Positions 1 to 26,108 of a DNA stretch of 64,000 bases are shown piece after piece. Source of the DNA: a virus. Each line of letters starts with the position of its first letter. Positions within the stretch are counted from its first letter, which is position 1. A model generated the notes under the pieces. That model worked only from the letters and a program-made list of their open reading frames with translations, ran no database searches and had not been told where the DNA came from. The stretch is taken from positions 82,626 through 146,625 of the IMG/VR virus record IMGVR_UViG_3300036851_000176, one strand, 5' to 3'. The position numbers and the translations under genes are program-made.

Positions 1-2
1 TA

Positions 3-2194: not shown

Positions 2195-2199
2195 TCAGA

Positions 2200-2688: not shown

Positions 2689-2691
2689 CGC

Positions 2692-7051: not shown

Positions 7052-7070
7052 TCGGGCACCTCCTTCGTTA

Positions 7071-8385: not shown

Positions 8386-8403
8386 TTTGTGACTCCTTTC
8401 TGT

Positions 8404-8937: not shown

Positions 8938-9125
8938 GCCGCCGATGTCCCTTCGTTGGCTGTCGTACTGTCGGGACGCTTGTACGTGACCTTGCCTCGA
9001 TTGATGACAACGGGAGAAGCGGGAACGATCCGCTCGTAGAAGTCGTCTCCGTCCGAGTCGGTCATGTTCGGCTCCGCCTCATAACTGTCATCGTTGTCGG
9101 CGTTATGCGGAATCACTTTCGCCAT
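8934..9125 (-). CDS. Small hypothetical protein
   Basis: RBS GGAAGGAGG; tightly coupled within the structural operon. Confidence 0.6.
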   Translation of the reverse strand: MAKVIPHNADNDDSYEAEPNMTDSDGDDFYERIVPASPVVINRGKVTYKRPDSTTANEGTSAA

Positions 9126-9140
9126 GGCTTGCCTCCTTCC

Positions 9141-10334: not shown

Positions 10335-10366
10335 CTACCCTCCTTTCCGCTTACGAATCCGTGCTG

Positions 10367-10837: not shown

Positions 10838-10862
10838 TGTGTCTCCTTTTCATTGGGGTGAA

Positions 10863-10882
10863 GCCACCCCCGAAGGGGTGGC
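10863..10882 (-). terminator. C(UUCG)G stem-loop after the major tail gene
   Basis: GCCACCCC-TTCG-GGGGTGGC on the minus strand; no U-tract. Confidence 0.5.
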
Positions 10883-10920
10883 CTCACTGATGACGATTTT
10901 CTTCACTTCTTCGGCCTGGC

Positions 10921-11538: not shown

Positions 11539-11551
11539 TCAGACCGCCCCC

Positions 11552-12643
11552 TTACGCGACTGTCGCAGCGATCACTGCGTCCGGGTAGTTCAGGCGCGGG
11601 ATGCGCGCGCTGGACGCCCGAAGGTAGTGAGTCCGCGACATTCCGTCGAGAAGCACCTCGGCCTGGAAGCCCTGGCGATTCTCTGTCTTGTTCCAGTCCG
11701 TCAGGACCATGACCTGGCCGTCCAGGGTCTGCGCGATCGGCACACCCTCGATTGCCAGCGGGCCGAGCACGAGCACCTTGTTGTCGGGCAGGTACTTCGT
11801 GAGCGACGGCCGACCGACGCCAGCCTCGCCCTCTGCTCGGTATCCGTTGTCGTAGATCGTGATGTCCTGGTTGACCGCGAACGACGTGAACATCTCCAGG
11901 ATGTCCTGCTTGCGTGGGCGCTGGATCGGTGCCGCGCCCTGCGCGAAGAAGTTGATCGTGTTGATGATCTTCGTGTTGCGGATCAGGTAGTCGAACGTCT
12001 TCGAGGTCATGTACAGATGGCGCGCGTAGAAGCCCGCGTCGTCTGCCATGAGTTCCGACCACGTCTGGATGTCGGCGACCGGATCGGCCGTCGCGACCTG
12101 ACTCCATCGAGCACCTGCCGTCAGGGTTGGCAGGTGGTCAGCGGCCACGTCGTAGTCCACCTGGAGAGTGTTACCTCCGGGGTACGTGATCGTGAGCTTG
12201 CCGTTGAGCAGCATGTCCCAACGCATCGCCTCTGTGAGGCGCTCGTTGCGGAGCCGGAGAATGCGCCCACGCTCGACCAGTTCGACACCGGCCGACCGCA
12301 GAACGTTCTCGTCGTCGCTCTCGAGCTTCATCCACTCTTCCTCCTCGATGGGGTGGATCTCTTCGAGGATGACGAGTCCGATGATCTTCTCCTGCCACGA
12401 CAGCTCGGGGCTGTACACGGCAGGCGAACCGTCGGGAGCGCGGAACTGCCCAACGCCGAACGGCTTCAGCTCGCGCACGCGCTGCTTGACCGTCCGCGTC
12501 GTGACGCTCTTGTTGGGAGCGAGGGTCTCACCGAGACGAGTCTCGGCATCCTCCGCCGCCCCGGGATCGCGGCCAGCCGCCGGACGAGTGATCTCCTCCG
12601 TCAGCGCTGCCTGATCCCATACGTCAAACACTTGCATAGGCAT
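11552..12643 (-). CDS. Major capsid protein (lambda gpE-like family)
   Basis: 363 aa; EAMRWDMLLNGK, DPVADI and terminal IPRLNYPDAV motifs. Confidence 0.85.
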   Translation of the reverse strand: MPMQVFDVWDQAALTEEITRPAAGRDPGAAEDAETRLGETLAPNKSVTTRTVKQRVRELKPFGVGQFRAPDGSPAVYSPELSWQEKIIGLVILEEIHPIEEEEWMKLESDDENVLRSAGVELVERGRILRLRNERLTEAMRWDMLLNGKLTITYPGGNTLQVDYDVAADHLPTLTAGARWSQVATADPVADIQTWSELMADDAGFYARHLYMTSKTFDYLIRNTKIINTINFFAQGAAPIQRPRKQDILEMFTSFAVNQDITIYDNGYRAEGEAGVGRPSLTKYLPDNKVLVLGPLAIEGVPIAQTLDGQVMVLTDWNKTENRQGFQAEVLLDGMSRTHYLRASSARIPRLNYPDAVIAATVA

Positions 12644-12666
12644 GGTTGTTCACACCTCCTTTCGGG

Positions 12667-13134
12667 TTACGAGAGCGGCGAACCGCTCGGGTCATGTGCG
12701 AGGAACTCGCACGTTGGGAGCGCGGTGGCAGCGCGGGTCACAGCGGGGCTGTTCTCCGACACTTCGACTCCACCTGCGATCTTGAGCTTCGACACGTCGA
12801 ACGAGACCAGACGGTAGAACGCTCCGAAAGGCTCGTCGCCCTCCGTGACGTTCCCTGCAAGGTCCACGTTCTCGATCAGCACGCCGACGATCTCGGCAGC
12901 GCTGTCTCCAGCGGAGTTGTCTCCGCCGTAGGCCGTCACCTTGCCATCCCGTGTCGAGTTGACGAGGATCGTGCCTGCCGGAGCGAAGAAGCGCGAGCCG
13001 TCAGTCGGCGACGCGAACGCACCGTCGTCCGTGGCGTCGAGCACGACGTTCTTGCGAGGCGTGCCCACCGGCGCCGCGAAACGCAGCGGCGAAACGCTGC
13101 CGTAGCTTGCCTTCTTCACGATGTTTGCTGGCAT
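12667..13134 (-). CDS. Head decoration / capsid cement protein
   Basis: PAGTIL...IVGVLIENVD; lies between scaffold and major capsid. Confidence 0.7.
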   Translation of the reverse strand: MPANIVKKASYGSVSPLRFAAPVGTPRKNVVLDATDDGAFASPTDGSRFFAPAGTILVNSTRDGKVTAYGGDNSAGDSAAEIVGVLIENVDLAGNVTEGDEPFGAFYRLVSFDVSKLKIAGGVEVSENSPAVTRAATALPTCEFLAHDPSGSPLS

Positions 13135-13154
13135 TTGGACTTACCTCCTTTCGA

Positions 13155-15764
13155 TTACTCGGACTTCTTCTCTGCCTTCGCCTCGGCCTCGGCCTTGGCG
13201 ACAGCCTCGTCGGACGACAGGCCCTCCTCCAGGAAGAGCTGGCGTGCCCGACGCTGAACGTCAGCCGAAAGTTCGACCTCTTCGGTCGTCTCCTCGGGCT
13301 TCGTTCCCTCGGTCGTGTCCTTGTCCGTGACCTGCTTGTCTTCCAGGTTCACGGCCCCACTGAGATCGACGAGAGCCTCGACCACATCGGACAGCGTGAG
13401 TCCGGTCGTCTTGGACTTCGGATCGTCGGAGAGCGTGATCTTGCCCTCGGACTTCGATCCCGGAACCTCGGCGATCACCGTTCCGTCGTCGGCGAGCATG
13501 AACGCCTCGGCCGCTGCGAGAATGGCAGGAGCCTTCTTCTCCTCTGCCCACTCGCTCAGCTTCGCCTCCACCTTCGCCTTCTTCTGGGACTCCTTGAGCG
13601 CCTCGCGCTCTTCCAGAGCCGCGCGGATCTCGTCCTCCGAGAGTCCGAACGTCTCCACGTAGTCCACCGTTGCTTCGTCTGGCATTTCGTTACCTCCCTC
13701 CGATGCAGTCGATGTCACCTCCTGACTCAGTAGAACCAGAAGGTTCTCGCGGGTCAGTCTTGCGTCGCTCATGTTCACCTTGACGCCGTACTTCTTCAGC
13801 GCGGCGCGGATGCGAGCCTTGATCTTGCTGAGTTGCCCGCTGCTGTACTGCGCAGCGTTCTGTGCCTGGTTGATGTACGACCAGGCGGCTCGACAGTGCT
13901 GCTCGGTGTCGAGCGGGTATCGCTTCTTGCCGTCCTTCTGGTAACCGGGGTCGGCGTACTTCACGTCGCCGTACGGTTTCTTCGGGTCGGCGGCGAGATC
14001 AGCCTTCTCTTCGGATTCCTCGGTCTCCTCAGCAGCGGCCTCTTCCTCTGCTTCGGTCACCTCAGTCTCCTCAGCGACAACTTCCTCGCCCTCCGGGGCC
14101 TTCTCTTCGTCAGAGAGTTCGACATCCGCCTTACCCTCAGCGGCCCCGTCGTCCGTCTTCTCGACCTCCTTCTCCTCGGGCTTCTCTTCGGCGAGCATCG
14201 CCTCCAATTCCTCGTCGGAGATTTCGGTCACTTCCTCTGAGAACGTCACGACTGTCTTCACCTCCTCATCAGTTGCGGCCATACCGAAGGGCTTCATCCC
14301 ACTCAGCCACGGCCGGTTCGTGAGCGCGACGTGTTCGAGCACGGCGTTGAAACGCTTGCCGTCTTCCTTACGCGGGTAGTCGAAGAGGACTCCTGCGCTG
14401 GTGTTGGCGATCGTTCCGTTCTGTGCCTTGCCCTTCACGTCAGGCTCCGTGAAGTCATGCGCCGCCTGAAGCGTCACACGACCCTTTCCATCCTTCTTGA
14501 GCCGCAGCCCTCGGATGAAACCTGTATTTTCGAGAACTTTGTTGTCGTGCGATGTCGGGATCGTGACATGCTCAACCGCCCCGTCCTCGTAATTCTTGAG
14601 CAACTCGCTCATCGAGATGACGAGCTTCGCGGGATCAGACTTGCCCTTCGCAATTACCGTGATCGGCTTCGAAACCGGGCGCTGTCCAGGGCCAGGAGAC
14701 AACTTCCACCTGCCCTCGCGCATGATCGTCTTCCAGATGTACCCATCCTTGTCCGCAGCGAGTTCGATTTCTCCGCGCGCGGTCTTATCATCGAAGAAGA
14801 ACTCTCCCATCCATGGCTCGTCGTCCGACAGGCTCATTCCCATCGCGCGTGCCGGGTGGGGAGCCTTGTCGAGCGCCTTGTCCGCTCGATCCTTGGCAAT
14901 GAGACCGTGGATGCGGCGGAAAATGTCCTTCATCTCGAACCGATCGCTGTCATCGGTCTCGACCTTCAAGTAGGACAAAGCCGCGTCGGCGACGTGCTGA
15001 AGGATCTGGATGTTCGTCTCGGCAGCGAGATTCACACGCTCGGCAGATTCGGAGAGCAGCGTTTCGACCTTCTCCTCGTCGAGCGACTCGACGAACTTTG
15101 CGAGGTCGGTGTACTCCTCTTCTGTCCAGTCGAAATATTCGCTCAGAACAACCGGCTTCATCTTGGACTCCGCCTCCGCGCTCTTGCGCCAAGCGGTCGA
15201 GTGGTAGATGAGATCCTTGATGATTCCGGCATACCGCTGAGCATTCTCCTCTCCGAACTCTTCCTTGTAGTCGGCGAAGCACTGAGCAAATGGGTGCGAG
15301 AACTTAGCGTAGTAACGGAGCAGCGGGAGCAATTTCTGGTAGTCCTCCGCGCTCACGTTCGCCGTTCCGGGACTGAAGCCGCCCTGGAGGTTCTCGGCGC
15401 TGTACTTCTGGAAGTCTTCATCGCTCAGATCCACTTCGAGAGACACGATCGGGTCTTCGATCTCCGAGAGGCGGGCCTTTGCCGCGCGACTTGCTGCGGC
15501 CTTCGCCTTCAGCGCCTCCCACTCAGCGACAGCCTTGAGTGCCGCCGCGCGAGTCTCGGGCTTGACGTTTCCTCCGCCGCGCGCCCATCGCTTCACGGTG
15601 TTGATCGCCGTAGCGATGGCTCGCGATTCCGTCATACCCTTCTTCTTCAGCTCGTTGGCGATGTGCTGAATGTAGGCAGGAAGTTGCCAACCTTTGTGCT
15701 TCCACAGGGGCTTGGTGCCTACTGGCTCGTGGATCGTGGCTTTGGCGAGACTGCCTACTGCCAT
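13155..15764 (-). CDS. Capsid maturation protease / scaffold fusion protein
   Basis: Mu gpI-like motif LEHVALTNRPWLSGMKP; acidic linker; YADPGYQKDGKKRYPLDTEQHCRAAWSYINQ (DUF6582-like); acidic scaffold C-terminus; RBS GGAGG before ATG 15764. Confidence 0.75.
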   Translation of the reverse strand: MAVGSLAKATIHEPVGTKPLWKHKGWQLPAYIQHIANELKKKGMTESRAIATAINTVKRWARGGGNVKPETRAAALKAVAEWEALKAKAAASRAAKARLSEIEDPIVSLEVDLSDEDFQKYSAENLQGGFSPGTANVSAEDYQKLLPLLRYYAKFSHPFAQCFADYKEEFGEENAQRYAGIIKDLIYHSTAWRKSAEAESKMKPVVLSEYFDWTEEEYTDLAKFVESLDEEKVETLLSESAERVNLAAETNIQILQHVADAALSYLKVETDDSDRFEMKDIFRRIHGLIAKDRADKALDKAPHPARAMGMSLSDDEPWMGEFFFDDKTARGEIELAADKDGYIWKTIMREGRWKLSPGPGQRPVSKPITVIAKGKSDPAKLVISMSELLKNYEDGAVEHVTIPTSHDNKVLENTGFIRGLRLKKDGKGRVTLQAAHDFTEPDVKGKAQNGTIANTSAGVLFDYPRKEDGKRFNAVLEHVALTNRPWLSGMKPFGMAATDEEVKTVVTFSEEVTEISDEELEAMLAEEKPEEKEVEKTDDGAAEGKADVELSDEEKAPEGEEVVAEETEVTEAEEEAAAEETEESEEKADLAADPKKPYGDVKYADPGYQKDGKKRYPLDTEQHCRAAWSYINQAQNAAQYSSGQLSKIKARIRAALKKYGVKVNMSDARLTRENLLVLLSQEVTSTASEGGNEMPDEATVDYVETFGLSEDEIRAALEEREALKESQKKAKVEAKLSEWAEEKKAPAILAAAEAFMLADDGTVIAEVPGSKSEGKITLSDDPKSKTTGLTLSDVVEALVDLSGAVNLEDKQVTDKDTTEGTKPEETTEEVELSADVQRRARQLFLEEGLSSDEAVAKAEAEAKAEKKSE

Positions 15765-15949
15765 CAGAGCGCCTCCCTTCCTAGGAGCCATTCCTTGATG
15801 ATCTCTTCATCGATGCAAGGCGCAAACTGCCAACGACAGTGTGGGCACTTGTAGATGGGAGTTGTCTCCCTCGCGTATTCTTCGATCATTCGCATGCGGG
15901 TGTACTGAAGAACATCGTGCTGCTGCTTGCATCGAGGGCAGCGCATCAT
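15764..15949 (-). CDS. Small zinc-ribbon protein
   Basis: CPRC...CPHC; stop overlaps the protease start. Confidence 0.6.
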   Translation of the reverse strand: MMRCPRCKQQHDVLQYTRMRMIEEYARETTPIYKCPHCRWQFAPCIDEEIIKEWLLGREAL

Positions 15950-16130
15950 TCGCCCTTCGATCAGTGGGCGGCGGGGGCGTGCTGGTGACTGGCCGTCCGT
16001 CGCCACTAGCCCAATGTAACCATTAGAGGGTATTTCTGGCTGGATTTGGCAAGGGTTCGCGCAGGTAACAGACAGTTTCCTGCTTATCTTGTCAACCCGG
16101 ACAATTTCACCTACGATTCGAAGTGGTAAA

Positions 16131-16484
16131 ATGATCGACGTGCCCCCTAAGGATCTGACGCGATGCCGCAAAGGTCATCGCAAGGCTCAAACAAGCGGTC
16201 GGTGTCGTCAGTGCAAGCGAGAAGCCGACCTTCGCTATCGCCATTCCGAGAAAGGTAGGGCGCAGAGGGCTGTCTACGAACAAAGCGAGACGGGGAAGAC
16301 TCGCAAGGCTCGTTTTCGATCTACCGAGACCAATGCCGTCATCCAGTCCCGGTACAGTCATTCCGAGAAAGGGCATGCTCGCAGGGCGCGCTACCAACAC
16401 AGCGATAAGGGACACGCGACGGCAAGCAGATTTCAACAGTCTGAGCGGGGGCGAAACATCGCCGCTCGAAATCGACACAAGTAA
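16131..16484 (+). CDS. Basic Zn-finger protein with RYxxSEKG repeats
   Basis: CRKGH...CRQC followed by about six (Y/F)xxS(E/D)KG-like repeats. Confidence 0.6.
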   Translation: MIDVPPKDLTRCRKGHRKAQTSGRCRQCKREADLRYRHSEKGRAQRAVYEQSETGKTRKARFRSTETNAVIQSRYSHSEKGHARRARYQHSDKGHATASRFQQSERGRNIAARNRHK

Positions 16485-16493
16485 GGAGGTCTA

Positions 16494-17618
16494 GTGGCTG
16501 AAACAAGACAGTGCGGTAAGTGTCGAGAAGACAAGCCCGTGACCGACTTCGACGACACGCGAGTGTCCAACGGAGTCAGTCGCAAGTGTGAGGCTTGCTA
16601 CGAAGCAGAGGGCAGAGGCCGACGACCGAACGTCGCCGAGCCAAGCGAGATCGAGAAGTCAACTCTCGAAGCCCTCAAGAAGCTGGGAGATACGGCGTCA
16701 ATCGAAGAGATCGCCGACTACGCCGACATCGCGCCGAAGCGAGTGCGCGAGGCTCTGGAATCCCTTGGGCATCAAGGATTCCGTCTGGAGCACGAGGGAG
16801 ATCACAAGGTTACCCTCCAGAAAGTCCCCCGACCGAGCACCATGGAGCACAAGGTGCTGTTCAAGGGCGAGACCTATCGGTTCGCCATCATCTCCGACGT
16901 ACACCTCAACTCGAAGCACTGCCGACTCGATGAACTCCACATCGCGTATGACATGGTGGCCTCCGAAGGAATCTCCGACGTGTACAACCCGGGAGACATC
17001 GTGGCCGGTCGCGGCATCTTCAAGGGCCAGGACCACGAGATCATCAACCACACGTTCGAGGCACAGAAATCGTTTGCGATCGAGAACTACCCGGTGCGTG
17101 ATGGGGTCACGACCTACATCATCTCCGGGAACCACGACTGCGAAGGCGACTTCGGCAAGGCCGGAGCCGATGCCTGCCTCGGAGTGGCAAACGAGCGCGA
17201 GGACCTGATCTGGGGCGGAATGTATGCCGCCGACTATGTTCTCCCGAACGGAGCCGTGATGACGATGCGGCACCCGATGGGCGGATCGTCCTACGCGAAG
17301 TCGTACAAACCTCAGAAGTTCGCTGAATCGTTCGAGGGCGGCACGAAGCCCGCGATCGTCCTCTTCGGCCACTGGCACAACTTCGAGGTCGGTTTCCACC
17401 GCAACGTGTACATGATCAACTGCGGCACCTTCGAGGGATACGGCGGGACCTTGGGTCTCCGCGTTCCTCTCGGAGCGCCCGCTGTCGGCTTCACGATCGC
17501 CGAAGCAACTCTCGGCGATGACGGATCACTCGTCCGCTTCAAGCACGAGTGGTTCCCGTTCTACGCGGGCCGACGCATGGGCAAAGGAAAGAGCCGTTCC
17601 GGCCGCAAGGCTGCGTAG
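16494..17618 (+). CDS. Zn-finger / HTH / calcineurin-like metallophosphoesterase
   Basis: SDVH, GDIVAG, GNHD, GHWH motifs; N-terminal CxxC pairs and a winged HTH. Confidence 0.85.
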   Translation: MAETRQCGKCREDKPVTDFDDTRVSNGVSRKCEACYEAEGRGRRPNVAEPSEIEKSTLEALKKLGDTASIEEIADYADIAPKRVREALESLGHQGFRLEHEGDHKVTLQKVPRPSTMEHKVLFKGETYRFAIISDVHLNSKHCRLDELHIAYDMVASEGISDVYNPGDIVAGRGIFKGQDHEIINHTFEAQKSFAIENYPVRDGVTTYIISGNHDCEGDFGKAGADACLGVANEREDLIWGGMYAADYVLPNGAVMTMRHPMGGSSYAKSYKPQKFAESFEGGTKPAIVLFGHWHNFEVGFHRNVYMINCGTFEGYGGTLGLRVPLGAPAVGFTIAEATLGDDGSLVRFKHEWFPFYAGRRMGKGKSRSGRKAA

Positions 17619-18016
17619 TGGGCGGTCTATCCATCCCCGACCGGATTCTCAGTGAGGATGCCACCGAAAGGTGGTGTCCTTGCTGTGAGACCTGGAAGTT
17701 GATGGACCGCCAGCACTTCTATGTCGCCTCGAACACGAAAGCAGGATTTCGTCGGACGTGCAAGGCGTGCCAGAAATTGAAAGATGCACGCAATCGACAT
17801 CTCGAATACAACGGGTATGTCTACATGAATAGAGTCCGGCCGTGGCTGCGCGCTCTCGTCGAGAAACTCGGCTTCACCGGTGCAGCCGAAGCCCTCGGCG
17901 TCTGGAAAGGCCAATTGGCCGGATGGATGAGCAAGCGCCGCAGACGTATCCAGCGGCGCAACGCGGCCCGCATTCTCCGCGTGTGCGGAGAGCATGGGAT
18001 TCGCATCGCTGTTTAG
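17618..18016 (+). CDS. Zn-finger plus HTH DNA-binding protein
   Basis: WCPCC...CKAC and AAEALGVWKGQLAGW; GTG overlaps the previous stop. Confidence 0.6.
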   Translation: MGGLSIPDRILSEDATERWCPCCETWKLMDRQHFYVASNTKAGFRRTCKACQKLKDARNRHLEYNGYVYMNRVRPWLRALVEKLGFTGAAEALGVWKGQLAGWMSKRRRRIQRRNAARILRVCGEHGIRIAV

Positions 18017-18088
18017 GCTGGCACGGAAGGAATCGAACCTTCATCACTCGGTTAACAGCCGAGGGTTTTACCGTTAAACTACACGCCA
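18016..18088 (-). tRNA. tRNA-Asn(GTT)
   Basis: Cloverleaf; anticodon arm CTCGG-CTGTTAA-CCGAG; TTCGATT T-loop. Confidence 0.92.
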
Positions 18089-18178
18089 TCGATTTACTGC
18101 TGTCGCAGTAGTTATTTCGTCAAACCGGCCAATTCCCTGGTCCAGGAAATTAGCCTTCGTGCAACGTTTCCGTTCAAA

Positions 18179-18254
18179 TGGGGGGTCGCCAGGGACTTGC
18201 ACCCTGCTCAACCAGAGTCACAGTCTGGGATCTCGCTGCCTAGATTTACGACCC
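18179..18254 (-). tRNA. tRNA-His(GTG)
   Basis: CCAGA-CTGTGAC-TCTGG; C73 and encoded CCA; T-loop TGCAAGT. Confidence 0.88.
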
Positions 18255-18256
18255 AG

Positions 18257-18325
18257 CTGGAGAGGCAGGGGTCGAACCTGCGCTACGAGGTTCAGAGCCT
18301 CGCTGTCTACCATTAACACCCTCCA
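18257..18325 (-). tRNA. tRNA-Gln(CTG), compact D-arm
   Basis: CGAGG-CTCTGAA-CCTCG; TTCGACC T-loop. Confidence 0.85.
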
Positions 18326-18329
18326 ATGT

Positions 18330-18416
18330 AGGGAGACCACTCGCTTCCCACCCCGGCTTGGAGACCCCGGTTTGATGGGGGTTTATCCTCACGGGCCTTA
18401 GCCTTGTCCGTCTCCC
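18330..18416 (-). ncRNA. Unidentified structured RNA within the tRNA operon
   Basis: Closed by the 7-bp stem GGGAGAC/GTCTCCC; starts 2 nt after tRNA-Phe. Confidence 0.5.
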
Positions 18417-18418
18417 AG

Positions 18419-18489
18419 TGGACCGAGAAGGAGTTGAACCTTCACCTCCCGCGCTTCAAGCGGGCGCTCTACCTCTGAGCTACCAGTCC
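18419..18489 (-). tRNA. tRNA-Phe(GAA)
   Basis: CCCGC-TTGAAGC-GCGGG; canonical D and T arms. Confidence 0.92.
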
Positions 18490-18501
18490 ATGTCTTGCTA
18501 G

Positions 18502-18570
18502 CGGGCCAGGAAGGAATCGAACCCTCTCCTAACGGGTTGGAGCCGTTTTGGACACCATGTCCTCTCGCCC
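18502..18570 (-). tRNA. tRNA-Trp(CCA), compact D-arm
   Basis: AACGG-CTCCAAC-CCGTT; G73. Confidence 0.87.
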
Positions 18571-18637
18571 AAGTTGGACGATCGTGCGCACCGGGGGAAT
18601 GCTCTTATCACCGGTGCCCAGTGCGCGCGTCGTCCGA

Positions 18638-18710
18638 TCAGGCTGAGAGGATTCGAACCTCTACCGCTCGCTCCCAAAGCGACCGTGCTGCCGTTGAACA
18701 CTACAGCCTG
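18638..18710 (-). tRNA. tRNA-Pro(TGG)
   Basis: TCGC-TTTGGGA-GCGA; C1-G72, A73. Confidence 0.92.
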
Positions 18711-18783
18711 TTGTGACTGTCTTCGCGGCTCGAACTTCGGTGCTTATGTGATGGTGCTTGAAGAGAGACGCGCAGACAGCGAA

Positions 18784-18846
18784 TTAGACCCCTGGAAACC
18801 AGGGGGTATTCGGCTGATGCTGTTGCGATGTCATCTCGATCTTCAT
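18784..18846 (-). CDS. Putative leader peptide of the Pro-Trp-Phe-Gln-His-Asn tRNA operon (MKIEMTSQQHQPNTPWFPGV)
   Basis: Starts 10 nt after the -10 box; 10 of 11 consecutive codons are Q/H/P/N/W/F; hairpin at 18789-18805. Confidence 0.8.
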   Translation of the reverse strand: MKIEMTSQQHQPNTPWFPGV

Positions 18847-18856
18847 TGCGCCACCA

Positions 18857-18885
18857 ACGTTACATGAATGGTCGTGGTCTGTCAA
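18857..18885 (-). promoter_or_regulatory. Sigma70-type promoter of tRNA operon D
   Basis: TTGACA-17 nt-TAACGT. Confidence 0.8.
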
Positions 18886-19042
18886 GCCGAGGCCGCTTGC
18901 TCAACCGCCAGTTTCCCAAGCGGCTCAGCGAAGCGGCCCAACACAAGGCCGATATTCCCAGTCGCCGCTGACACGGCTCCTGACTGCCTCGGATCCGGTG
19001 TCAGCCGGAGAGCCGAGCGGGCGCTTGCGCCTCGGACACGCT

Positions 19043-19243
19043 TCAAACGTCTGGCATCGAGAGGAAGTCCTGGTAACTCTCCTGCATGTCGGCCAAGCGT
19101 TCCTCGAAAAACTCCCGAATCTCTTCTTCGCTGGCGCGAGGGATCAGAGCAGCAAGGGCATGGTTCATCTCGTCCGCTGCGTACTCTCGTGTTCTGTCGG
19201 GGATCTTCATGATGTGGGGTGGCAGACTATTTGAACGGCTCAT
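19043..19243 (-). CDS. Hypothetical protein (66 aa)
   Basis: RBS GGAGG; lies downstream of the tmRNA. Confidence 0.6.
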   Translation of the reverse strand: MSRSNSLPPHIMKIPDRTREYAADEMNHALAALIPRASEEEIREFFEERLADMQESYQDFLSMPDV

Positions 19244-19338
19244 GTGATGCCTCCGCTTAGCGGCCTGCCAGCGACCTTACGCACTGGTTCTGTTCCCACG
19301 CCAGCGTGCGCCCCGCGCGGCCCCGAAGGGCATTTCAG

Positions 19339-19658
19339 TGGAGCCGCCGGGTATCGAACCCGGGTCCGTCTCGTCCGTACAAACAGATCTTCTAGCAGCT
19401 TCGGGGTGGTATACGCCACCTCCACCAGGGCAGACCTTTGGTCTCCGCGTCACCGTTGAATGGGGTCGGTGTCCCGTCCTACTGGTACATCATCCCGGAC
19501 TTCTGTTCCTACCGGCCGGGGCGGCGCTCGTGGCCGTTAAGCCGCGAGAGGAAGCACGTATGCTTCGTCGTTTCGTTTGCCCTCCGGGCCGGTGCGGTAG
19601 GCCGCAACCCGCTGCGATCTCCTTGCCGTTTTCGAGGCGTCGAATCCAATTCGGCCCC
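19339..19658 (-). ncRNA. ssrA: tmRNA
   Basis: 5' GGGGCCGAATTGGATTCGAC; 3' CCGGG-TTCGATA-CCCGG-CGGCTCCA with G3:U70; internal tag reading ...NDEAYVLPLAA-stop (TAA at 19537-19539). Confidence 0.92.
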
Positions 19659-19665
19659 ACACGGG

Positions 19666-19693
19666 ACTATACACATTCCGGGCGTTTTGTCAA
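19666..19693 (-). promoter_or_regulatory. Promoter of the tmRNA
   Basis: TTGACA-16 nt-TATAGT, 7 nt upstream of the tmRNA 5' end. Confidence 0.8.
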
Positions 19694-19947
19694 CCCACCT
19701 CGCGCCATATCCCTCGTTCGAGGTACCCGTGCCAGCCATCCTTGTTATCGGCCAACTTCTCCAGGATCGATGGAGAGACGGTCACGGTGCCGTCCTGGTG
19801 CTCGGTCACGTCCCATTCTTCGAGACGTGCGGGGCCAGATCCGTTCGGGAGGCAAACCCACAGGAATCTCGATGGGCCTCGGAAACAGTAGTCGCCCGCT
19901 TCGAGTTCCCACGGCAGCGTGTTATCTGGGCGTCGTCGTCCTTTCAT
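19690..19947 (-). CDS. Hypothetical protein (DUF6527-like)
   Basis: TVTVSPSI...WHGYLERGIW motif. Confidence 0.6.
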   Translation of the reverse strand: MKGRRRPDNTLPWELEAGDYCFRGPSRFLWVCLPNGSGPARLEEWDVTEHQDGTVTVSPSILEKLADNKDGWHGYLERGIWREVG

Positions 19948-20149
19948 GTGTTTACCGCAGACGACCCGCGCAAGGCGGGTCGTCGCGAGACTCAGGATCA
20001 CCTCCCCGTTAGAAGGGCCACTCTTCCTGTACGGCCACCGCTACGGGGAGGCCGTTGAGTCTTGCCACGTAGACCACCTCCTTCCTCCAACAAGGTGAGT
20101 CTACCGCAAAGTTTTTGGGCACAAAACATTGCAGTGGTACGCTAAAGGG

Positions 20150-20287
20150 ATGCCAATCGACCCCGAAACTGGACGCTACTGGACGCCGCGCTATCGATCG
20201 AAGTTTGAGGCGGTTCGAACCGTTGCCTCGTGCGTGTCTGCGGTTGGAACGATCTTCGTTCTGCTCAGAGTTTTCGGCAAGATCTAA
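20150..20287 (+). CDS. Small membrane peptide (45 aa), leaderless
   Basis: TACGCT-6 nt-ATG; MPIDPETGRYWTPRYRSKFEAVRTVASCVSAVGTIFVLLRVFGKI. Confidence 0.5.
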   Translation: MPIDPETGRYWTPRYRSKFEAVRTVASCVSAVGTIFVLLRVFGKI

Positions 20288-20288
20288 G

Positions 20289-20373
20289 CGGCGGGTGAGG
20301 GGATCGAACCCCCACAGGTGTTACCCCATCACCGGGTTCAAGCCGGATAAGCACGCCAGCCATGCGACCCGCC
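20289..20373 (-). tRNA. tRNA-Ser(TGA)
   Basis: CCGG-CTTGAAC-CCGG; long variable arm; G73. Confidence 0.85.
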
Positions 20374-20445
20374 GAGTGGACGATGTAACGCATTTTGCGT
20401 CACTCTGTCCATTCAAACCATTCCGCAATCGGAACAATTATGAAA

Positions 20446-20526
20446 TGCGCACCCCGGGATTCGAACCCGGACGCCTCGCGGCACCAGCCTCTCAGACTGG
20501 CGTGTCTACCGTTCCACCAGGCGCGC
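20446..20526 (-). tRNA. tRNA-Leu(GAG)
   Basis: CCAGT-CTGAGAG-GCTGG; long variable arm. Confidence 0.92.
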
Positions 20527-20562
20527 AAGTGTCAAGTTTTATGGCAAGAAAACTTGACAAAG

Positions 20563-20646
20563 CGGAAGGCCGAGGTCACGATCCCCACGCCTTTCGGCGC
20601 GATCCGGCTAGCAACCGGTCCCCGGGCCATCCCAGGTTGACCTTCC
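20563..20646 (-). tRNA. tRNA-Ser(GCT)
   Basis: CCGG-TTGCTAG-CCGG; long variable arm; atypical T-loop ATCGTGA. Confidence 0.83.
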
Positions 20647-20650
20647 GTAG

Positions 20651-20724
20651 TCCCCACGCCAGGATTCGAACCTGGATCCCTCCGGTTTGAGCGGAGTGCG
20701 TCTGCCGGATTGCGCCACGCGGGG
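20651..20724 (-). tRNA. tRNA-Leu(CAA), short variable loop
   Basis: CTCCG-CTCAAAC-CGGAG. Confidence 0.9.
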
Positions 20725-20734
20725 CTATGTCGAG

Positions 20735-20821
20735 TACGGGAGGCGGGAGTCGAACCCGCACGTCCTTTCGGACACCGATTTCTGAGACCGGCGCGTCTAC
20801 CGAGATTCCAGCCACTCCCGT
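20735..20821 (-). tRNA. tRNA-Leu(CAG)
   Basis: CCGGT-CTCAGAA-ATCGG; long variable arm. Confidence 0.92.
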
Positions 20822-20829
20822 ATGTCGAG

Positions 20830-20902
20830 AGCCGATGGCAGGAATCGAACCTGCGTGGACGGGGTTGCAATCCGTCGCCTGGGACCACTCGGCCACATCG
20901 GC
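20830..20902 (-). tRNA. tRNA-Cys(GCA)
   Basis: ACGG-ATTGCAACC-CCGT; U73. Confidence 0.92.
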
Positions 20903-20903
20903 T

Positions 20904-20977
20904 TGGTGGGCGCCCTAGGATTTGCACCTAGTCCTGCGGGGTTACGGCCCGGAATGCTCTAACTACACCAGACGCCC
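20904..20977 (-). tRNA. tRNA-Tyr(GTA), short variable loop
   Basis: CGGG-CCGTAAC-CCCG; ends ACCA; T-loop TGCAAAT. Confidence 0.83.
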
Positions 20978-20984
20978 AAGTAGG

Positions 20985-21041
20985 TCAGTCCGCCGAGGCG
21001 GACTGGCTAAGACTTAGGCAATACAACTGGTGCGCGAACAT
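20985..21041 (-). CDS. Putative leader peptide of the Tyr-Cys-Leu-Ser tRNA operon (MFAHQLYCLSLSQSASAD)
   Basis: Starts 10 nt after the -10 box; LYCLSLS run; hairpin at 20986-21005 overlaps the stop codon. Confidence 0.8.
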   Translation of the reverse strand: MFAHQLYCLSLSQSASAD

Positions 21042-21051
21042 AACGTGCCGG

Positions 21052-21080
21052 AGTATAGACGAAGATTGCTGATTTCGCAA
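21052..21080 (-). promoter_or_regulatory. Sigma70-type promoter of tRNA operon C
   Basis: TTGCGA-17 nt-TATACT. Confidence 0.8.
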
Positions 21081-21303
21081 GTATCTTCTCTACTTGAGCA
21101 ATCAGAGGTACTCGACGTGAAGAGTTCCGCCGAAGGGGAGGGTGCCATCGAAGAGGAACATTCCAAGTTCGTCACCTTGGTAGGCCAGAATCGAGGGTAT
21201 TTTCCTCGCGATCTTCTTGCTCCAGCGCCCACGCCGAGATGATCTTTCCAAGAGGAGGATCCGGAAAGAGGGGACGACCCAGTTCGTCTCGATCGTCGGG
21301 CAC

Positions 21304-21564
21304 TTACTTCGCCTGGAACATCGGCTTCAGCCGAGGTCGCGTCTCTGGCTTAGGGTCTCCCTCGTCCTCTGGGTAATCCACCGGCTGGCCCGAGATGCTG
21401 ATGTCTCCTGTCCCGTTTTCTACAATCCTGTTCACGTTGTATCGGACGCGAAAGTCGTTCGAGTAGACATCGTTGTCGATTTCTAGGGTCTCTCCTTCTC
21501 CCGGAAGCAGCACATACCCAACCGCGAAGACAAAGCAGTTATCCGTGTGGTTCGTGAGGATCAT
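21304..21564 (-). CDS. Hypothetical protein
   Basis: 86 aa ORF directly after the preceding gene. Confidence 0.55.
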   Translation of the reverse strand: MILTNHTDNCFVFAVGYVLLPGEGETLEIDNDVYSNDFRVRYNVNRIVENGTGDISISGQPVDYPEDEGDPKPETRPRLKPMFQAK

Positions 21565-21567
21565 GAC

Positions 21568-21954
21568 TCAGGCCGGGTAAGGAACGATGTTGTACAGGAC
21601 CACCAGAATCCCGCTGGCTACCGATCCTCCCGTCACATGAGCACTGATCTTTCCATCCTCGCTGGCAATGGATTTGATCCCGGATCCGAGTTCCGCCAAA
21701 ACCGCGTAAGACGTGGCCGGAATGGAAGAGCCGGATGTGATCGAGTTGTCGGCTCCGATCCCTACACCCAACGATCCAGATCCAGAGAACGCTTTCAGGA
21801 CGACTACGGTGCTGACGATTGCCCAGCCCTTCGGAATCAGATCTCCGAATTCGTAGGTTCCGGCAGAAAGACCGGGGCGAGCATCGAAGGTGGCGACCTT
21901 TGAGGTTTGTCCACCCTTCATCAGGGCGTAAATCTCTGAAAGGGGAGCAGTCAT
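21568..21954 (-). CDS. Hypothetical beta-rich protein
   Basis: Start moved to MTAPLSE because the track start lies inside tRNA-Thr. Confidence 0.6.
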   Translation of the reverse strand: MTAPLSEIYALMKGGQTSKVATFDARPGLSAGTYEFGDLIPKGWAIVSTVVVLKAFSGSGSLGVGIGADNSITSGSSIPATSYAVLAELGSGIKSIASEDGKISAHVTGGSVASGILVVLYNIVPYPA

Positions 21955-21981
21955 GGTGCGAGTGTACCATGCAAAATCAGG

Positions 21982-22054
21982 AGCCGGGGAGAGGAGTCGA
22001 ACCCCCACCGCAACCGTACAAAGGGTGCATGCTAGCCATTAACACCACCCCGGC
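21982..22054 (-). tRNA. tRNA-Thr(TGT)
   Basis: Anticodon loop TTTGTAC; canonical T arm. Confidence 0.88.
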
Positions 22055-22110
22055 TCGATCGTTCACTGGTGCAAGAAACTACGTTATGACTTAGTTTTCC
22101 GCACCAGTAG

Positions 22111-22183
22111 AGGCCCTAGGAGGATTCGAACCCCCGACTCACGCGGTAGAAACGCGCAGCTCTGTCCCCTGAGCTACAGGGCC
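22111..22183 (-). tRNA. tRNA-Arg(TCT)
   Basis: GCGCG-TTTCTAC-CGCGT; A20. Confidence 0.9.
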
Positions 22184-22213
22184 TTGGTAGTCATTACACG
22201 TACGATGTATCTG

Positions 22214-22304
22214 TCAGGCGCTAGTCTCCCTTGACCACTCCTGCCTCTCGTCCGCTGGTACCCGCTCGCGAGCGCACGCCGGAATCGAACCGGCCGTCTC
22301 CTGA
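22214..22304 (-). ncRNA. Circularly permuted tRNA-like RNA (YrlA/Y RNA-like)
   Basis: Order: closing stem TCAGG, T-arm GCCGG-TTCGATT-CCGGC, looped acceptor-like stem GTGCGCT/AGCGGAC, D-like GAGTGGTCAA, closing CCTGA. Confidence 0.6.
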
Positions 22305-22306
22305 AG

Positions 22307-22378
22307 TGGATCCCCGAGGACTCGAACCCCGATCTCATGGCTTAAAAGGCCAGACTCTGCCTGTTGAGTTAGAGATCC
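22307..22378 (-). tRNA. tRNA-Lys(TTT)
   Basis: TGGC-CTTTTAA-GCCA. Confidence 0.9.
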
Positions 22379-22420
22379 ATGTGCCGCAATTGGAAGGGGA
22401 TGCGGCCAACCGTCTTCGAG

Positions 22421-22493
22421 TGGACCGGCCGAGATTCGAACTCGGATCGCACGCGGTGCAAGCGCGGCAGGTTCCCATTACGCCCACCAGCCC
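22421..22493 (-). tRNA. tRNA-Ala(TGC)
   Basis: CGCG-CTTGCAC-CGCG; G3:U70. Confidence 0.9.
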
Positions 22494-22504
22494 AGGTGTT
22501 GCTA

Positions 22505-22579
22505 TCGGCCGAGGAGGATTCGAACCTCCGACTGACACGGGTTCGAAGCCCGCCGCTCTGTCCACTGAGCTACCAGCCG
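22505..22579 (-). tRNA. tRNA-Arg(TCG)
   Basis: GCGGG-CTTCGAA-CCCGT; A20. Confidence 0.88.
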
Positions 22580-22587
22580 TTATGTAG

Positions 22588-22660
22588 TGCGGCGAGCAAG
22601 AGTCGAACTTGCGTCCTCCGGGTTCGCAACCCGGCGCTCTGTCCTCTGAGCTATCGTCGC
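22588..22660 (-). tRNA. tRNA-Arg(GCG)
   Basis: CCGGG-TTGCGAA-CCCGG; A20. Confidence 0.88.
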
Positions 22661-22709
22661 GCGTGTCATGCAATACACGTTTTTCATGTACAACGTGACA
22701 GTCTTGCAG

Positions 22710-22782
22710 TGGCGCCCCGAGGACTTGCACCCCGTTCGCGCGGCTTAAGAGGCCGGACTCTGGCTCGTTGAGTTAGAGCGCC
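22710..22782 (-). tRNA. tRNA-Lys(CTT)
   Basis: CGGC-CTCTTAA-GCCG; T-loop TGCAAGT. Confidence 0.85.
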
Positions 22783-22790
22783 ATATGTAG

Positions 22791-22861
22791 TAGGCATCCA
22801 GAGACTTGAACTCCGATCTCCTGGGTGTAGGCCAGGTGTCCTCCCATTGGACGAGACGCCT
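22791..22861 (-). tRNA. tRNA-Val(TAC)
   Basis: CCTGG-CCTACAC-CCAGG. Confidence 0.88.
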
Positions 22862-22874
22862 ATGTTGTTTCGAG

Positions 22875-22947
22875 TGGACCGGGGAGCGATCGAATCTCCC
22901 GCCTCTCCTTTATCAGAGGAGCGCTCTGCCGTCTGAGCTACCAGTCC
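22875..22947 (-). tRNA. tRNA-Ile(GAT)
   Basis: CTCCT-CTGATAA-AGGAG. Confidence 0.92.
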
Positions 22948-22968
22948 ATGTTCCGTGCTGGACTGCGG

Positions 22969-23064
22969 CTATGCGACGGTAATGCGCGTCGCGGCCAGCA
23001 CGGTGCGGACGACGGTTCTCGTCGTTCGCTTGAGTTTCCTCTGTGCTGTCCGCGTGAAGTTCAT
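22969..23064 (-). CDS. Putative leader peptide of the Ile-Val-Lys-Arg-Ala-Thr tRNA operon (MNFTRTAQRKLKRTTRTVVRTVLAATRITVA)
   Basis: Leaderless ATG 7 nt after the -10 box; 25 of 30 non-start codons are T/R/A/V/K/I; hairpin at 22953-23003. Confidence 0.85.
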   Translation of the reverse strand: MNFTRTAQRKLKRTTRTVVRTVLAATRITVA

Positions 23065-23071
23065 GATCGTG

Positions 23072-23099
23072 ACCTTAGCAGGTTTCGAGAAAAAGTCAA
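23072..23099 (-). promoter_or_regulatory. Promoter of tRNA operon B
   Basis: TTGACT-16 nt-TAAGGT with TGn extended -10. Confidence 0.75.
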
Positions 23100-23100
23100 G

Positions 23101-23173
23101 AGCCACCGATCGGATTTGAACCGATCCTACAACGTTGGCAACGTTGCGTGCTACCGCTAGACACTACGGTGGC
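23101..23173 (-). tRNA. tRNA-Gly(GCC)
   Basis: CAACG-TTGCCAA-CGTTG; U73. Confidence 0.92.
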
Positions 23174-23176
23174 AAA

Positions 23177-23272
23177 TGGAGAGCCTAGGTCCTCAGTTAT
23201 TCCCCGCCGGGGAGGACTCCACGGCATCACTCCTAAGAGTGGCGGGCCAGATGTCTCCGATGTCAACTCTCC
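23177..23272 (-). ncRNA. Unidentified structured RNA between the two Gly tRNAs
   Basis: Closing stem GGAGAGTT/GGCTCTCC plus A; internal hairpins CACTC-TTAG-GAGTG and GTCCTC/GAGGAC. Confidence 0.45.
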
Positions 23273-23302
23273 TGGGAGACCCACGGTCTTTGGTTTTTCC
23301 AG

Positions 23303-23376
23303 AGCGCCTGCTCGGATTCGAACCGAGACTGCCAGCTTGGAAGGCTGGCGTGCTGACCGTTAAACACTACGGGCGC
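23303..23376 (-). tRNA. tRNA-Gly(TCC)
   Basis: CCAGC-CTTCCAA-GCTGG; U73. Confidence 0.92.
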
Positions 23377-23404
23377 GTGCTTGCCATGGTACCTGAAACG
23401 AGAG

Positions 23405-23476
23405 CGGGTCTACGGAGGATCGAACTCCGATCTGTGCCTCGACAGGGCACCGTCCTAGCCATTGAACGACAGACCC
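23405..23476 (-). tRNA. tRNA-Asp(GTC)
   Basis: GTGCC-CTGTCGA-GGCAC; G73. Confidence 0.92.
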
Positions 23477-23569
23477 AAGGATGAGGAGTGAGCGGTGCAA
23501 ATCGACCACCCTCATCAGCAACTCCTGTCCGGATGCATCCCCGGCTCAGGTCAGCAGCGTCCTACTGAG

Positions 23570-23643
23570 TGTCCCGACCGGGATTCGAACCCGGGTCGCC
23601 GCCGTGAGAGGGCGGTATCCTAGACCAACTAGACGATCAGGAC
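23570..23643 (-). tRNA. tRNA-Glu(CTC)
   Basis: CCGCC-CTCTCAC-GGCGG. Confidence 0.92.
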
Positions 23644-23695
23644 GTATCGGGGTTCTTCATCTCCGGGCCTGAACCCGAAGCGAGTGCTACCCCAG

Positions 23696-23769
23696 TGCCA
23701 CCGGCGGGATTCGAACCCGCATCGCCGAGCTTGAAAGGCTCGCATCCTAAGCCATTAGACGACGTTGGC
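23696..23769 (-). tRNA. tRNA-Glu(TTC)
   Basis: CGAGC-CTTTCAA-GCTCG. Confidence 0.92.
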
Positions 23770-24057
23770 AAGTCCCCTTGCGGGGAGCGCCCAGTCCGCT
23801 TGCCCTCTACCGGGGGCCGACCGGGCAATGATTGAGGCACCTGCGGGCCGTGCCTCCCTGCGCCCTCCGGAGAATCCATGAGGCTGCGAGCGGTGGAGAG
23901 TCGATCGCGCCTGGGATGTCAATTCGGGAGGGTCATGACTCCCTCCCGACCTGGCCGTCGCCAGGATTTCAGTGTTGCTCCGTCGAGCACCCCTCGGCCC
24001 GGACAACCGCCGGGACGGAAACGCGAGAGGCCACTGTCTCCGGGTTTCCCCTTCGAG

Positions 24058-24130
24058 TAGCGGGTACGGGAGTCGAACCCGCTGTCTTCGGCTTATGAGG
24101 CCGCTGTGGAAGCCGTTTCACTCCCCCGCT
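24058..24130 (-). tRNA. tRNA-Met(CAT), elongator type (Ile2 not excluded)
   Basis: CGGC-CTCATAA-GCCG; paired 1-72. Confidence 0.83.
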
Positions 24131-25043: not shown

Positions 25044-25696
25044 GGGGCGCCCCCGCCGTAGTAGTCAGGAGCGCGCGTACCGTTTCCGCCGGAGGAGTCA
25101 TAAGACACTCCTGCACTTGGATCAGCGGAGTAAACGACGTTCTTGGGAAGTTCGTTGTGTCCCGTCATTCTCCCCTTGGCATCGAGAGTGAAACGGAAAG
25201 GAGTCAGCGCCTGTCCCTCTCGGACAAGGACTACGTTGCGAGAGATCAGAGACTTGTCGTTGCCACGCAATCGCCACAGTTCGACATGTACCTTGATGCT
25301 TCCTCGATCACTCTTCATGTAGAGATGAACGTTGACCGAATACTCACCCACGACCGCTCCCCTGATGACGACTCGTTCTCCGTTCTGAACCACCCTGACG
25401 GATCCTTCGGTCTCGGACGCTGCGGTTCCGAGGTCGTCGTGCTCAAGGTGCATGAGACCGACGCTGTCGGAACCGAAGTAAACGACGTTTCCTTCGGGAT
25501 CCTCGACGTAAAGATCCACGTCATCATTCGATCCGTCCTTCCATGAGATCGTGACCGCGTACACACCCAGCGTGTCCACGGCCGTCGTCTTCTTGGGTGG
25601 CGGCTGAAGAAGAACGAGGATGATGAGAAGGAGACAGAACAGCGTATCGATCGCTGCCCATGCGACCGCCGCCCTAGCGCTGTCGCGGTGTGGCAT
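25040..25696 (-). CDS. ExbD/MotB-like TM protein with a YfaP-like extracellular domain
   Basis: AAIDTLFCLLLIIL (Asp in TM); W...DDVDLYVEDPEG...L.HDD.G...GEYSVNVHLY. Confidence 0.65.
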   Translation of the reverse strand: MPHRDSARAAVAWAAIDTLFCLLLIILVLLQPPPKKTTAVDTLGVYAVTISWKDGSNDDVDLYVEDPEGNVVYFGSDSVGLMHLEHDDLGTAASETEGSVRVVQNGERVVIRGAVVGEYSVNVHLYMKSDRGSIKVHVELWRLRGNDKSLISRNVVLVREGQALTPFRFTLDAKGRMTGHNELPKNVVYSADPSAGVSYDSSGGNGTRAPDYYGGGAP

Positions 25697-26108
25697 GATC
25701 TTTGAGGGGAAGCTGAAGCAACACGAGCACGACCGCGCAAGAGATTCCCACGAACGTCGCAAGCAATCCGCTTGAAGCGCCCGCGACCTTCTGCTGGAAA
25801 TTCGTCACGTCACTCGAATCGCTGCTGAGCGCCATGAGGAATCCAGCGACCGTCCCGAGCATCGCCACCATCGGGCAGAGACCGATCGCCTCAGAGAGAT
25901 GATGCTTCTCGTCCTTCTGCTCGTCCCATGCCAACTTCCCCGCGTATGCGCTAGCAACAGCGAACACACTGAAAACAGCGCCAATCGCCAGTTTGGCCGG
26001 AGTGGGGATGCTGCCCGAATAGGAAATGTCTGCTGTGACAAGGCTTGCTACGAAGAGCACGTTGATCAGTGCCCAACGGAGGAAGAGTTTCCTGTCACGA
26101 ACCCTCAT
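25674..26108 (-). CDS. MotA/TolQ/ExbB proton-channel family protein
   Basis: CPMVAMLGTVAGF...GASSGLLATFVGI, matching the conserved PxxGxxGTxxG / G...AL.TT..G helices. Confidence 0.75.
   Translation of the reverse strand: MRVRDRKLFLRWALINVLFVASLVTADISYSGSIPTPAKLAIGAVFSVFAVASAYAGKLAWDEQKDEKHHLSEAIGLCPMVAMLGTVAGFLMALSSDSSDVTNFQQKVAGASSGLLATFVGISCAVVLVLLQLPLKDHATPRQR

Follow-up and report, generated by a model that had tools for sequence, protein, structure and literature searches.

Why does a phage place a short open reading frame (ORF), composed largely of codons for six amino acids, just ahead of nine transfer RNA (tRNA) genes which carry those same six amino acids? This question is raised by a 64,000-nucleotide (nt) stretch of DNA, referred to here as the window, which spans bases 82626–146625 of IMG/VR record IMGVR_UViG_3300036851_000176. 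The record is an uncultivated virus contig of 146.6 kilobases (kb) which is ~95% complete and has ~58% G+C. An array of 27–28 tRNA genes and one transfer-messenger RNA (tmRNA) gene, called with ARAGORN and Rfam, occupies 18016–24130 on the minus strand. Within this array, a 152-nt spacer separates tRNA-Gly(GCC) from tRNA-Ile(GAT), which is the first gene of what is called operon B, and the short ORF in this spacer is named leader B. Phage tRNA genes are usually seen as constitutive add-ons, which tune codon usage or replace host tRNAs depleted by defence nucleases. The analysis presented here suggests that leader B is probably a sensor, read by the ribosome, for the tRNAs of its own operon, whichever step of their production it acts on. 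This reading is supported because of the composition statistics of the ORF, the repetition of the arrangement within the array and the existence of a conserved, covarying analogue in cultured phages.

Operon B consists of nine tRNAs and ends at a 1-kb gap with its own promoter. The order of the genes fixes the amino-acid set and therefore, the set was not picked post hoc. The set carried by the nine tRNAs is Thr, Arg, Ala, Val, Lys and Ile, and it accounts for 25 of the 30 non-start codons of leader B (Thr 8, Arg 6, Ala 4, Val 4, Lys 2 and Ile 1). The ORF and its composition had been described in the original prediction, which was made from the letters alone, and both were recovered at 23064–22969. 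To place the value in context, 1049 ORFs of 25–60 codons were collected from the six frames of the whole contig. Here, the fraction of T/R/A/V/K/I counted from the ATG is 0.83 for leader B, which is the top of the list, and 0.71 for the next ORF. The binomial tail for the composition is ~1.4e-6, while shuffles of the ORF body which preserve dinucleotides give a mean of 15.7 ± 2.4 matches and reach 25 in 2 of 10,000 trials (P 2e-4). Codons from the other tRNA sets are depleted, with 0, 2 and 3 of 30. In addition, the Arg codons (CGG, AGG, CGA, AGA and two CGC) cover three isoacceptors and the Lys codons are AAA and AAG. This coverage, which had also been pointed out before, is present; the even 2/2/2 spread of the Arg codons over the isoacceptors is not significant when judged against genome codon usage (P = 0.07). 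An antisense frame of 54 amino acids (22955–23119) was considered and set aside, as it overlaps two tRNAs on the opposite strand and there is no promoter-like site nearby on the plus strand.

The ORF is positioned immediately downstream of a promoter-like motif, P_B, which has the form TTGACT-16-TAAGGT (23099–23072, minus strand). The spacing from this motif to the ATG suggests that the transcript of leader B starts leaderless, at the AUG. P_B had been skipped by a consensus scan because TAAGGT fits only three positions of TATAAT. Identical hexamers with the same 16-nt spacing recur once in the genome, at 26142 (minus strand), where an ATG 6 nt further on opens the ORF of a 144-residue, MotA/ExbB-like membrane protein (25674–26108, minus strand). 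TAAGGT serves as the −10 hexamer at 35409 as well. As the twin of P_B heads a leaderless gene, the phage therefore appears to use both promoters of this type and leaderless starts. On transcripts that read through P_B, the AAGG within its TAAGGT hexamer could instead act as a weak ribosome-binding site. Separately, a 128-residue ORF inside the array (21568–21954, minus strand) also looks leaderless, with TGGTACACT providing an extended −10 element 6 nt ahead of the ATG.

The arrangement seen at leader B is found twice more in the array, where the sister leaders C and D are each preceded by a promoter. Leader C has the core LYCLSLS followed by more Ser codons, and is followed by tRNAs Tyr, Cys, Leu, Leu, Leu and Ser. 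Leader D has the core QQHQPNTPWFP and is followed by tRNAs Pro, Trp, Phe, Gln, His and Asn. The match of each leader to its own set has a shuffle P of 0.019 for C and 0.0037 for D, and each of the three leaders is rich in codons for its own tRNA set and poor in those for the others. A control scan, in which codons were matched to the upstream tRNAs instead of the downstream ones, returned nothing. All three leaders end in or beside a G+C-rich hairpin over the stop codon. A candidate leader for operon A was examined as well and is not convincing.

Further support for codon-matched leaders came from phages unrelated to that of the window. A generic scan, which scores ORFs in tRNA-array spacers against the next 3–10 tRNAs, was run on unrelated phage arrays and picked out Caulobacter phage CcrRogue (NC_019408). 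Its unit, at 7094–7262, consists of a TTGAC-type promoter, 7 nt, a 31-codon ORF, a strong intrinsic terminator and then tRNAs Phe, Val, Ile, Ile, Val, Gln, Gln and Arg. Leaderless leader units of this kind, with ORFs of 31–32 codons and referred to below as phiCbK-type, are conserved across several genera, in nine or more phages of Caulobacter and Brevundimonas. The peptides vary, while a block of ~14 codons (for example, YRQFVRQIQVVRN) stays within Tyr/Arg/Gln/Asn/Phe/Val/Ile, which are the amino acids of the tRNAs that follow. Part of the ORF duplicates the sequence of the terminator's 3' arm. In the terminator, 99% of cells are paired and four pairs have double changes, and compensatory changes also occur in the core of the antiterminator. 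When a ribosome was placed on the leader of phage CcrSC by masking its footprint during folding, positions at codons 3–13 were predicted to give the antiterminator and those from codon 15 onward the terminator. Most records annotate only the terminator of this unit, which precedes the Tyr/Phe/Val/Ile/Gln/Asn/Arg block.

A second unit in these phages is annotated as a 45-residue 'hypothetical protein' (CcrRogue 5190–5430; gp335 of phiCbK, at 234–463 of its record) and is probably the leader of a second tRNA operon. In CcrRogue, 33 of 44 residues belong to P/T/K/L/H/A (P = 4e-7), the set of the Pro-to-Ala block which ARAGORN calls behind the terminator. With Ser added this becomes 42 of 44; Ser tRNAs are called there in phiCbK and not in CcrRogue. 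The two versions differ by seven non-synonymous and zero synonymous codon changes, and five of the seven stay in the set. Just upstream of this second leader, CcrRogue has a promoter-like TTGACA-17-GAGCTT followed by a nested hairpin and a T-run (5068–5155), an element that could represent a small RNA or another attenuator.

If leader B is a sensor, what does it control? The original prediction had allowed for an effect on termination or on tRNA folding and processing. Control by intrinsic termination is not supported, since the sequence from the ORF to tRNA-Ile lacks a hairpin with a U-run behind it. The two pairings that had been noticed are both in the sequence. One is a 9-base-pair hairpin, H2, with arms at 22995–23003 and 22953–22961, which encloses the stop codon (22969–22971). 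The other is the heptamer CAGTCCA (22959–22965), which is the exact complement of TGGACTG (22942–22948) at the 5' end of tRNA-Ile. A complement of at least 7 nt to a tRNA 5' end is found for one of 26 tRNAs, namely tRNA-Ile, and the chance level is ~1.3% per tRNA. The features of the locus, and those of the sister leaders, are collected in Table 1.

Table 1. Coordinates of leader B, its promoter, predicted RNA elements and target tRNAs, and of the two sister leaders (window numbering).
Feature	Position	Strand	Remarks
−35-like hexamer of P_B	23094–23099	−	TTGACT; directly after tRNA-Gly(GCC)
−10-like hexamer of P_B	23072–23077	−	TAAGGT; 7 nt ahead of ATG
Leader ORF B	22969–23064	−	31 sense codons and TAG
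Region alpha	23043–23053	−	GCGGACAGCAC; codons 4–8; partner of beta when not covered by a ribosome; predicted fold
Hairpin H1	23005–23029	−	Inside ORF, codons 12–20; predicted fold
Region beta	22991–23003	−	5' arm of H2; pairs with alpha or gamma; predicted fold
Hairpin H3	22973–22992	−	Small, in the loop of H2; ends just ahead of stop codon; predicted fold
Region gamma	22953–22965	−	3' arm of H2 (22953–22961), overlapping CAGTCCA (22959–22965)
Region delta	22942–22948	−	TGGACTG; tRNA-Ile positions −1 to +6; spans RNase P cleavage site
tRNA-Ile(GAT)	22874–22947	−	Operon B, gene 1
Remainder of operon B	21980–22861	−	tRNAs Val, Lys(CTT), Arg(GCG), Arg(TCG), Ala, Lys(TTT), Arg(TCT), Thr
Sister leader C	20985–21041	−	18 codons; 9/17 in Y/C/L/S; follows promoter 21080–21052
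Sister leader D	18784–18846	−	20 codons; 10/19 in P/W/F/Q/H/N; follows TTGACA-17-TAACGT

Folding was done with ViennaRNA on the RNA from the AUG through the 3' end of tRNA-Ile, with the ribosome modelled as a masked footprint. The predicted fold of the spacer is more stable than those of its shuffles (z = −2.7), and the competing helices are predicted to be near-isoenergetic: −16.4 kcal/mol for alpha:beta and −16.8 for beta:gamma. Pairing of CAGTCCA with the tRNA is worth −9.6 kcal/mol, compared with −10.6 for the acceptor stem of tRNA-Ile itself. In the minimum-energy fold without a ribosome, alpha:beta and the leader–tRNA helix are formed and tRNA-Ile is misfolded (−78.6 kcal/mol, the alternative fold being at −72.1). 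Placing the footprint at codons 2–14 is predicted to give the stop-codon hairpin and the cloverleaf, with an acceptor probability of 0.8–0.9. The sequestered form returns with the footprint at codons 15–25, and at codons 30–32 the tRNA is free again. The earlier proposal of two mutually exclusive folds thus stands in part. Both conformers are predicted, and the addition of alpha as a partner of beta makes four regions of the original arrangement; what does not hold as simply is its specificity and direction, as 5% of shuffles do equally well, the pairing energy is nonspecific and it is the position of the stall that sets the direction.

From these elements we infer a scheme in which leader B is translated, ribosomes stall on it and the resulting fold alters the yield of tRNA. 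The transcript from P_B would begin at the AUG, and a 70S ribosome would read the 31 codons, sampling Thr, Arg, Ala, Val, Lys and Ile. When decoding is slow, due to loss of host tRNAs or to the heavy demand of infection, the ribosome would dwell in the first third of the ORF, thereby setting the fold of the RNA emerging behind RNA polymerase. If a ribosome stalls on alpha, with its A site within codons 2–14, beta would be left to pair with gamma, so that the stop-codon hairpin forms and the tRNA folds. With alpha uncovered, alpha:beta would form instead, and CAGTCCA would pair with the 5' acceptor strand of the nascent tRNA-Ile, blocking both the folding of the tRNA and cleavage by RNase P. 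A terminator-free, two-conformer switch into tRNA-Ile is thus the favoured output, although it is a tentative choice given the modelling on which it is based. That translation of the leader peptide controls maturation, meaning the fold of the first tRNA and its cut by RNase P, and not termination of transcription, is a somewhat doubtful proposition.

Several observations weigh against the sensor and its switch. Some concern the pairing itself. The statistics for a four-part switch are marginal (p ~0.01–0.05, from the models): shuffled leaders sequester the acceptor equally fully in 5% of trials, and in over half of these shuffles ViennaRNA predicts a misfolded tRNA-Ile within its context. An extended complementarity between the 3' part of the leader and the tRNA was tried and rejected as nonspecific, as several other tRNAs pair with the leader just as well; the score is −30.9 kcal/mol with tRNA-Ile and −30.4 with tRNA-Arg(TCG). 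The sign of control is not clean either, for the sensed codons span the whole ORF and a footprint at codons 15–25 sequesters the tRNA. Others concern the arrangement of the locus. It is not obvious how a switch confined to tRNA-Ile would extend its control to the following eight tRNAs, and leaders C and D have no exact complement to a tRNA 5' end like that of B. In transcripts reading through from operon A, the AUG of the leader would not be at the 5' end. The minus strand from 23064 to 22874 has no hairpin with a U-run, the tail past the stop-codon hairpin being AACAUGG. Finally, no relative carrying leader B was found in any collection searched.

These points give room to other explanations, and the one closest to the favoured switch keeps the sensor and changes the output. 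Here, transcription would end prematurely ahead of the tRNAs, either with Rho or at a non-canonical hairpin; a stalled ribosome would keep Rho from loading or the hairpin from forming, and a vacated leader would allow termination. Such termination would control all nine tRNAs together, and the phiCbK-type analogues do use terminator/antiterminator pairs. In the bodies of the leaders C outnumbers G (34% and 28%, respectively, for B) on a strand that is slightly G-rich overall. Moreover, the coding strand has few canonical terminators, with counts at the shuffle level in 1–17500 and one clear case at 39431–39411, so termination in this phage may rely largely on other means. The lack of a U-run hairpin past the ORF, where the RNA reads AACAUGG, speaks against this explanation, and the strong structure of the leader RNA, reflected in the z score given above, makes it a poor site for Rho loading. 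Rho-dependent or other non-canonical termination is rated as rather unlikely, while still a serious alternative.

The remaining explanations dispense with sensing. Leader B could be a chance frame in a structured, T-poor processing spacer, in which the hairpins serve processing by RNases, while the bias in codons simply reflects composition. The spacer is indeed only 11% T and rich in hairpin arms of the ACG/CGT type, the antisense frame of this stretch also matches the set, at 21/31, frames of 31 codons often stay open at 58–60% G+C, and no relative with leader B turned up in the collections searched. Composition alone, however, brings dinucleotide-preserving shuffles to the observed count only twice in the 10,000 trials; the frame begins exactly 7 nt past a promoter motif that elsewhere heads a leaderless gene; and the coincidence would have to recur at leaders C and D, whose composition is quite different, and again in unrelated phages. 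A chance origin is considered improbable. Still less credible is a small, very basic peptide with its own function, such as RNA binding or chaperoning near tRNA transcripts, to which the match with the tRNA set would be secondary. The size and charge of the product fit (8 Arg/Lys and no acidic residue), and small basic peptides are encoded beside tRNA genes elsewhere, an example being the protamine-like tpr reading frame at the tyrT locus of E. coli. Leaders C and D are not basic, however, and only the codon-matching rule is common to all three. The peptide has no match to a Pfam family, and in the second leader of the phiCbK group, most replacements stay in the set, which argues that it is the codon content that is kept and not the peptide. 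This explanation is regarded as very improbable.

The sensor reading places leader B next to the classical attenuators, with differences. In enterobacteria, the thr leader (Thr/Ile), those of ilvGMEDA and ilvBN (Ile/Val/Leu) and the pheM leader of pheST are multivalent attenuators. Like them, leader B is a short, 5' ORF rich in codons for several amino acids, in which the speed of the ribosome would report on charged tRNA and choose between helices. It lies 7 nt past a promoter motif and 21 nt ahead of tRNA-Ile, and its codon enrichment (P 2e-4 to 1e-6) is of the kind expected of an attenuator; an intrinsic terminator is absent. Its targets are the tRNAs themselves and not biosynthetic or synthetase genes, it samples six amino acids over the whole ORF, and its start is probably leaderless. 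In the terms of the 1:2, 2:3 and 3:4 helices of an attenuator, the tRNA would form helix 3:4 in place of the terminator. T-box riboswitches similarly report the status of tRNA to genes of the translation apparatus. In contrast to leader B, they bind uncharged tRNA directly and do not need translation, and no Rfam match to them or to any other family was found for 22948–23099.

For the favoured output, the closest parallel in mechanism is found in the leaderless poly-Cys small ORFs of mycobacteria. These are terminator-free: RNA of the vacant small ORF pairs with a downstream site, which a stalled ribosome frees (bioRxiv 10.1101/834739). The mycobacterial leaders respond to a single amino acid and sequester the Shine-Dalgarno sequence of a protein gene, whereas in leader B the candidate site is a tRNA acceptor strand with its RNase P site and the amino acids number six. 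The phiCbK-type leaders have the same parts in the same order, that is, a promoter, a leaderless, matched ORF of 31–45 codons, a stop-codon hairpin and a tRNA block. What sets them apart is a canonical terminator, which is strong, and an antiterminator that covaries, neither of which is found at leader B, and there is no sequence similarity between them, the phages being unrelated. No description of leader-peptide control of tRNA genes was found in the literature. Relative to what has been published, leader B would thus be a new form of ribosome-mediated attenuation, with the absence of a terminator setting it apart from the phiCbK-type leaders.

If this reading is correct, the supply of phage tRNAs would be driven by demand, with each block made when ribosomes slow on exactly its codons. 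tRNA genes would join the targets of ribosome-mediated attenuation, and phages would carry a built-in sensor of tRNA depletion. Leader B raises the question of a fold or processing switch versus Rho, which the terminator-bearing versions in Caulobacter phages do not raise. The general idea is directly testable, as the Caulobacter phages are in culture.

How widespread are such leaders? The codon-match rule is not universal among phage tRNA arrays. No match was found in mycobacteriophage Colt, Streptomyces phage Karimac or the metagenomic contigs L052, L055 and L028. In the tRNA region of phage T5, twelve small annotated ORFs give weak matches at most, the best P being 0.002 over up to eight sets each. 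No relative of the window phage was found in the phage collection, whether by DNA or by the tape-measure protein, and the window DNA has no similarity to phage records beyond tRNA genes. Larger virus records do not share the tRNA array, and exact and degenerate leader patterns had no match in viral and metagenome contigs. Among the proteins, a neighbour of 169 residues has no match in viral contigs, and the 128-residue protein encoded in the array is a singleton among 5.8 billion proteins. Homologues of a 240-residue, MotB-like protein are at most 60% identical, with no tRNAs at their loci. The best full-length relatives of an 878-residue protein are on contigs L028 and L055 (at 69% and 54% in the best segment, respectively), the tRNA arrays of which are without such leaders. 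A search of 22690–23110 with Rfam brought only the tRNA model near its gathering score; the leader received two plus-strand matches (14.9 and 14.5 bits), both far below their own thresholds and with E up to 10. By eye, a 476-nt array spacer in L028, a distant relative (IMG/VR contig 3300032035_000006, 70% G+C; ~16450–16800), has stretches that resemble bacterial RNase P RNA.

The host of the window phage is likely actinobacterial, because its tRNAs find their matches mostly in phages of Mycobacterium, Streptomyces and Gordonia, and one homologue of a neighbouring protein carries the label Gaiella. Within the array, several genes were recognized by one program only. tRNA-Lys(CTT) of operon B (22710–22782, minus strand) was missed by ARAGORN and scores 35.2 bits with the Rfam tRNA model, for which the cut-off is 29. 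It has an unusual T-loop, in which G replaces the near-universal U55, and is a paralogue of tRNA-Lys(TTT) at 22306–22378 (minus strand). A Met(CAT) tRNA gene (24058–24130, minus strand), found by Rfam and not by ARAGORN, begins 6–7 nt past a promoter at 24164–24137. The same is true of detection for a long-arm tRNA at 20735–20821 (minus strand), which is read as Leu(CAG). The phage tmRNA (19336–19658, minus strand) scores 54.6 bits against an Rfam cut-off of 47, and its promoter, TTGACA-16-TATAGT at 19693–19666, places the mature 5' end ~7 nt past the −10 hexamer. The terminator at 39411–39431 (minus strand), the sole clearly canonical one seen in the first 44.5 kb of the coding strand (1–44.5 kb), consists of a 6-base-pair, all-G/C stem followed by TTTTCTG.

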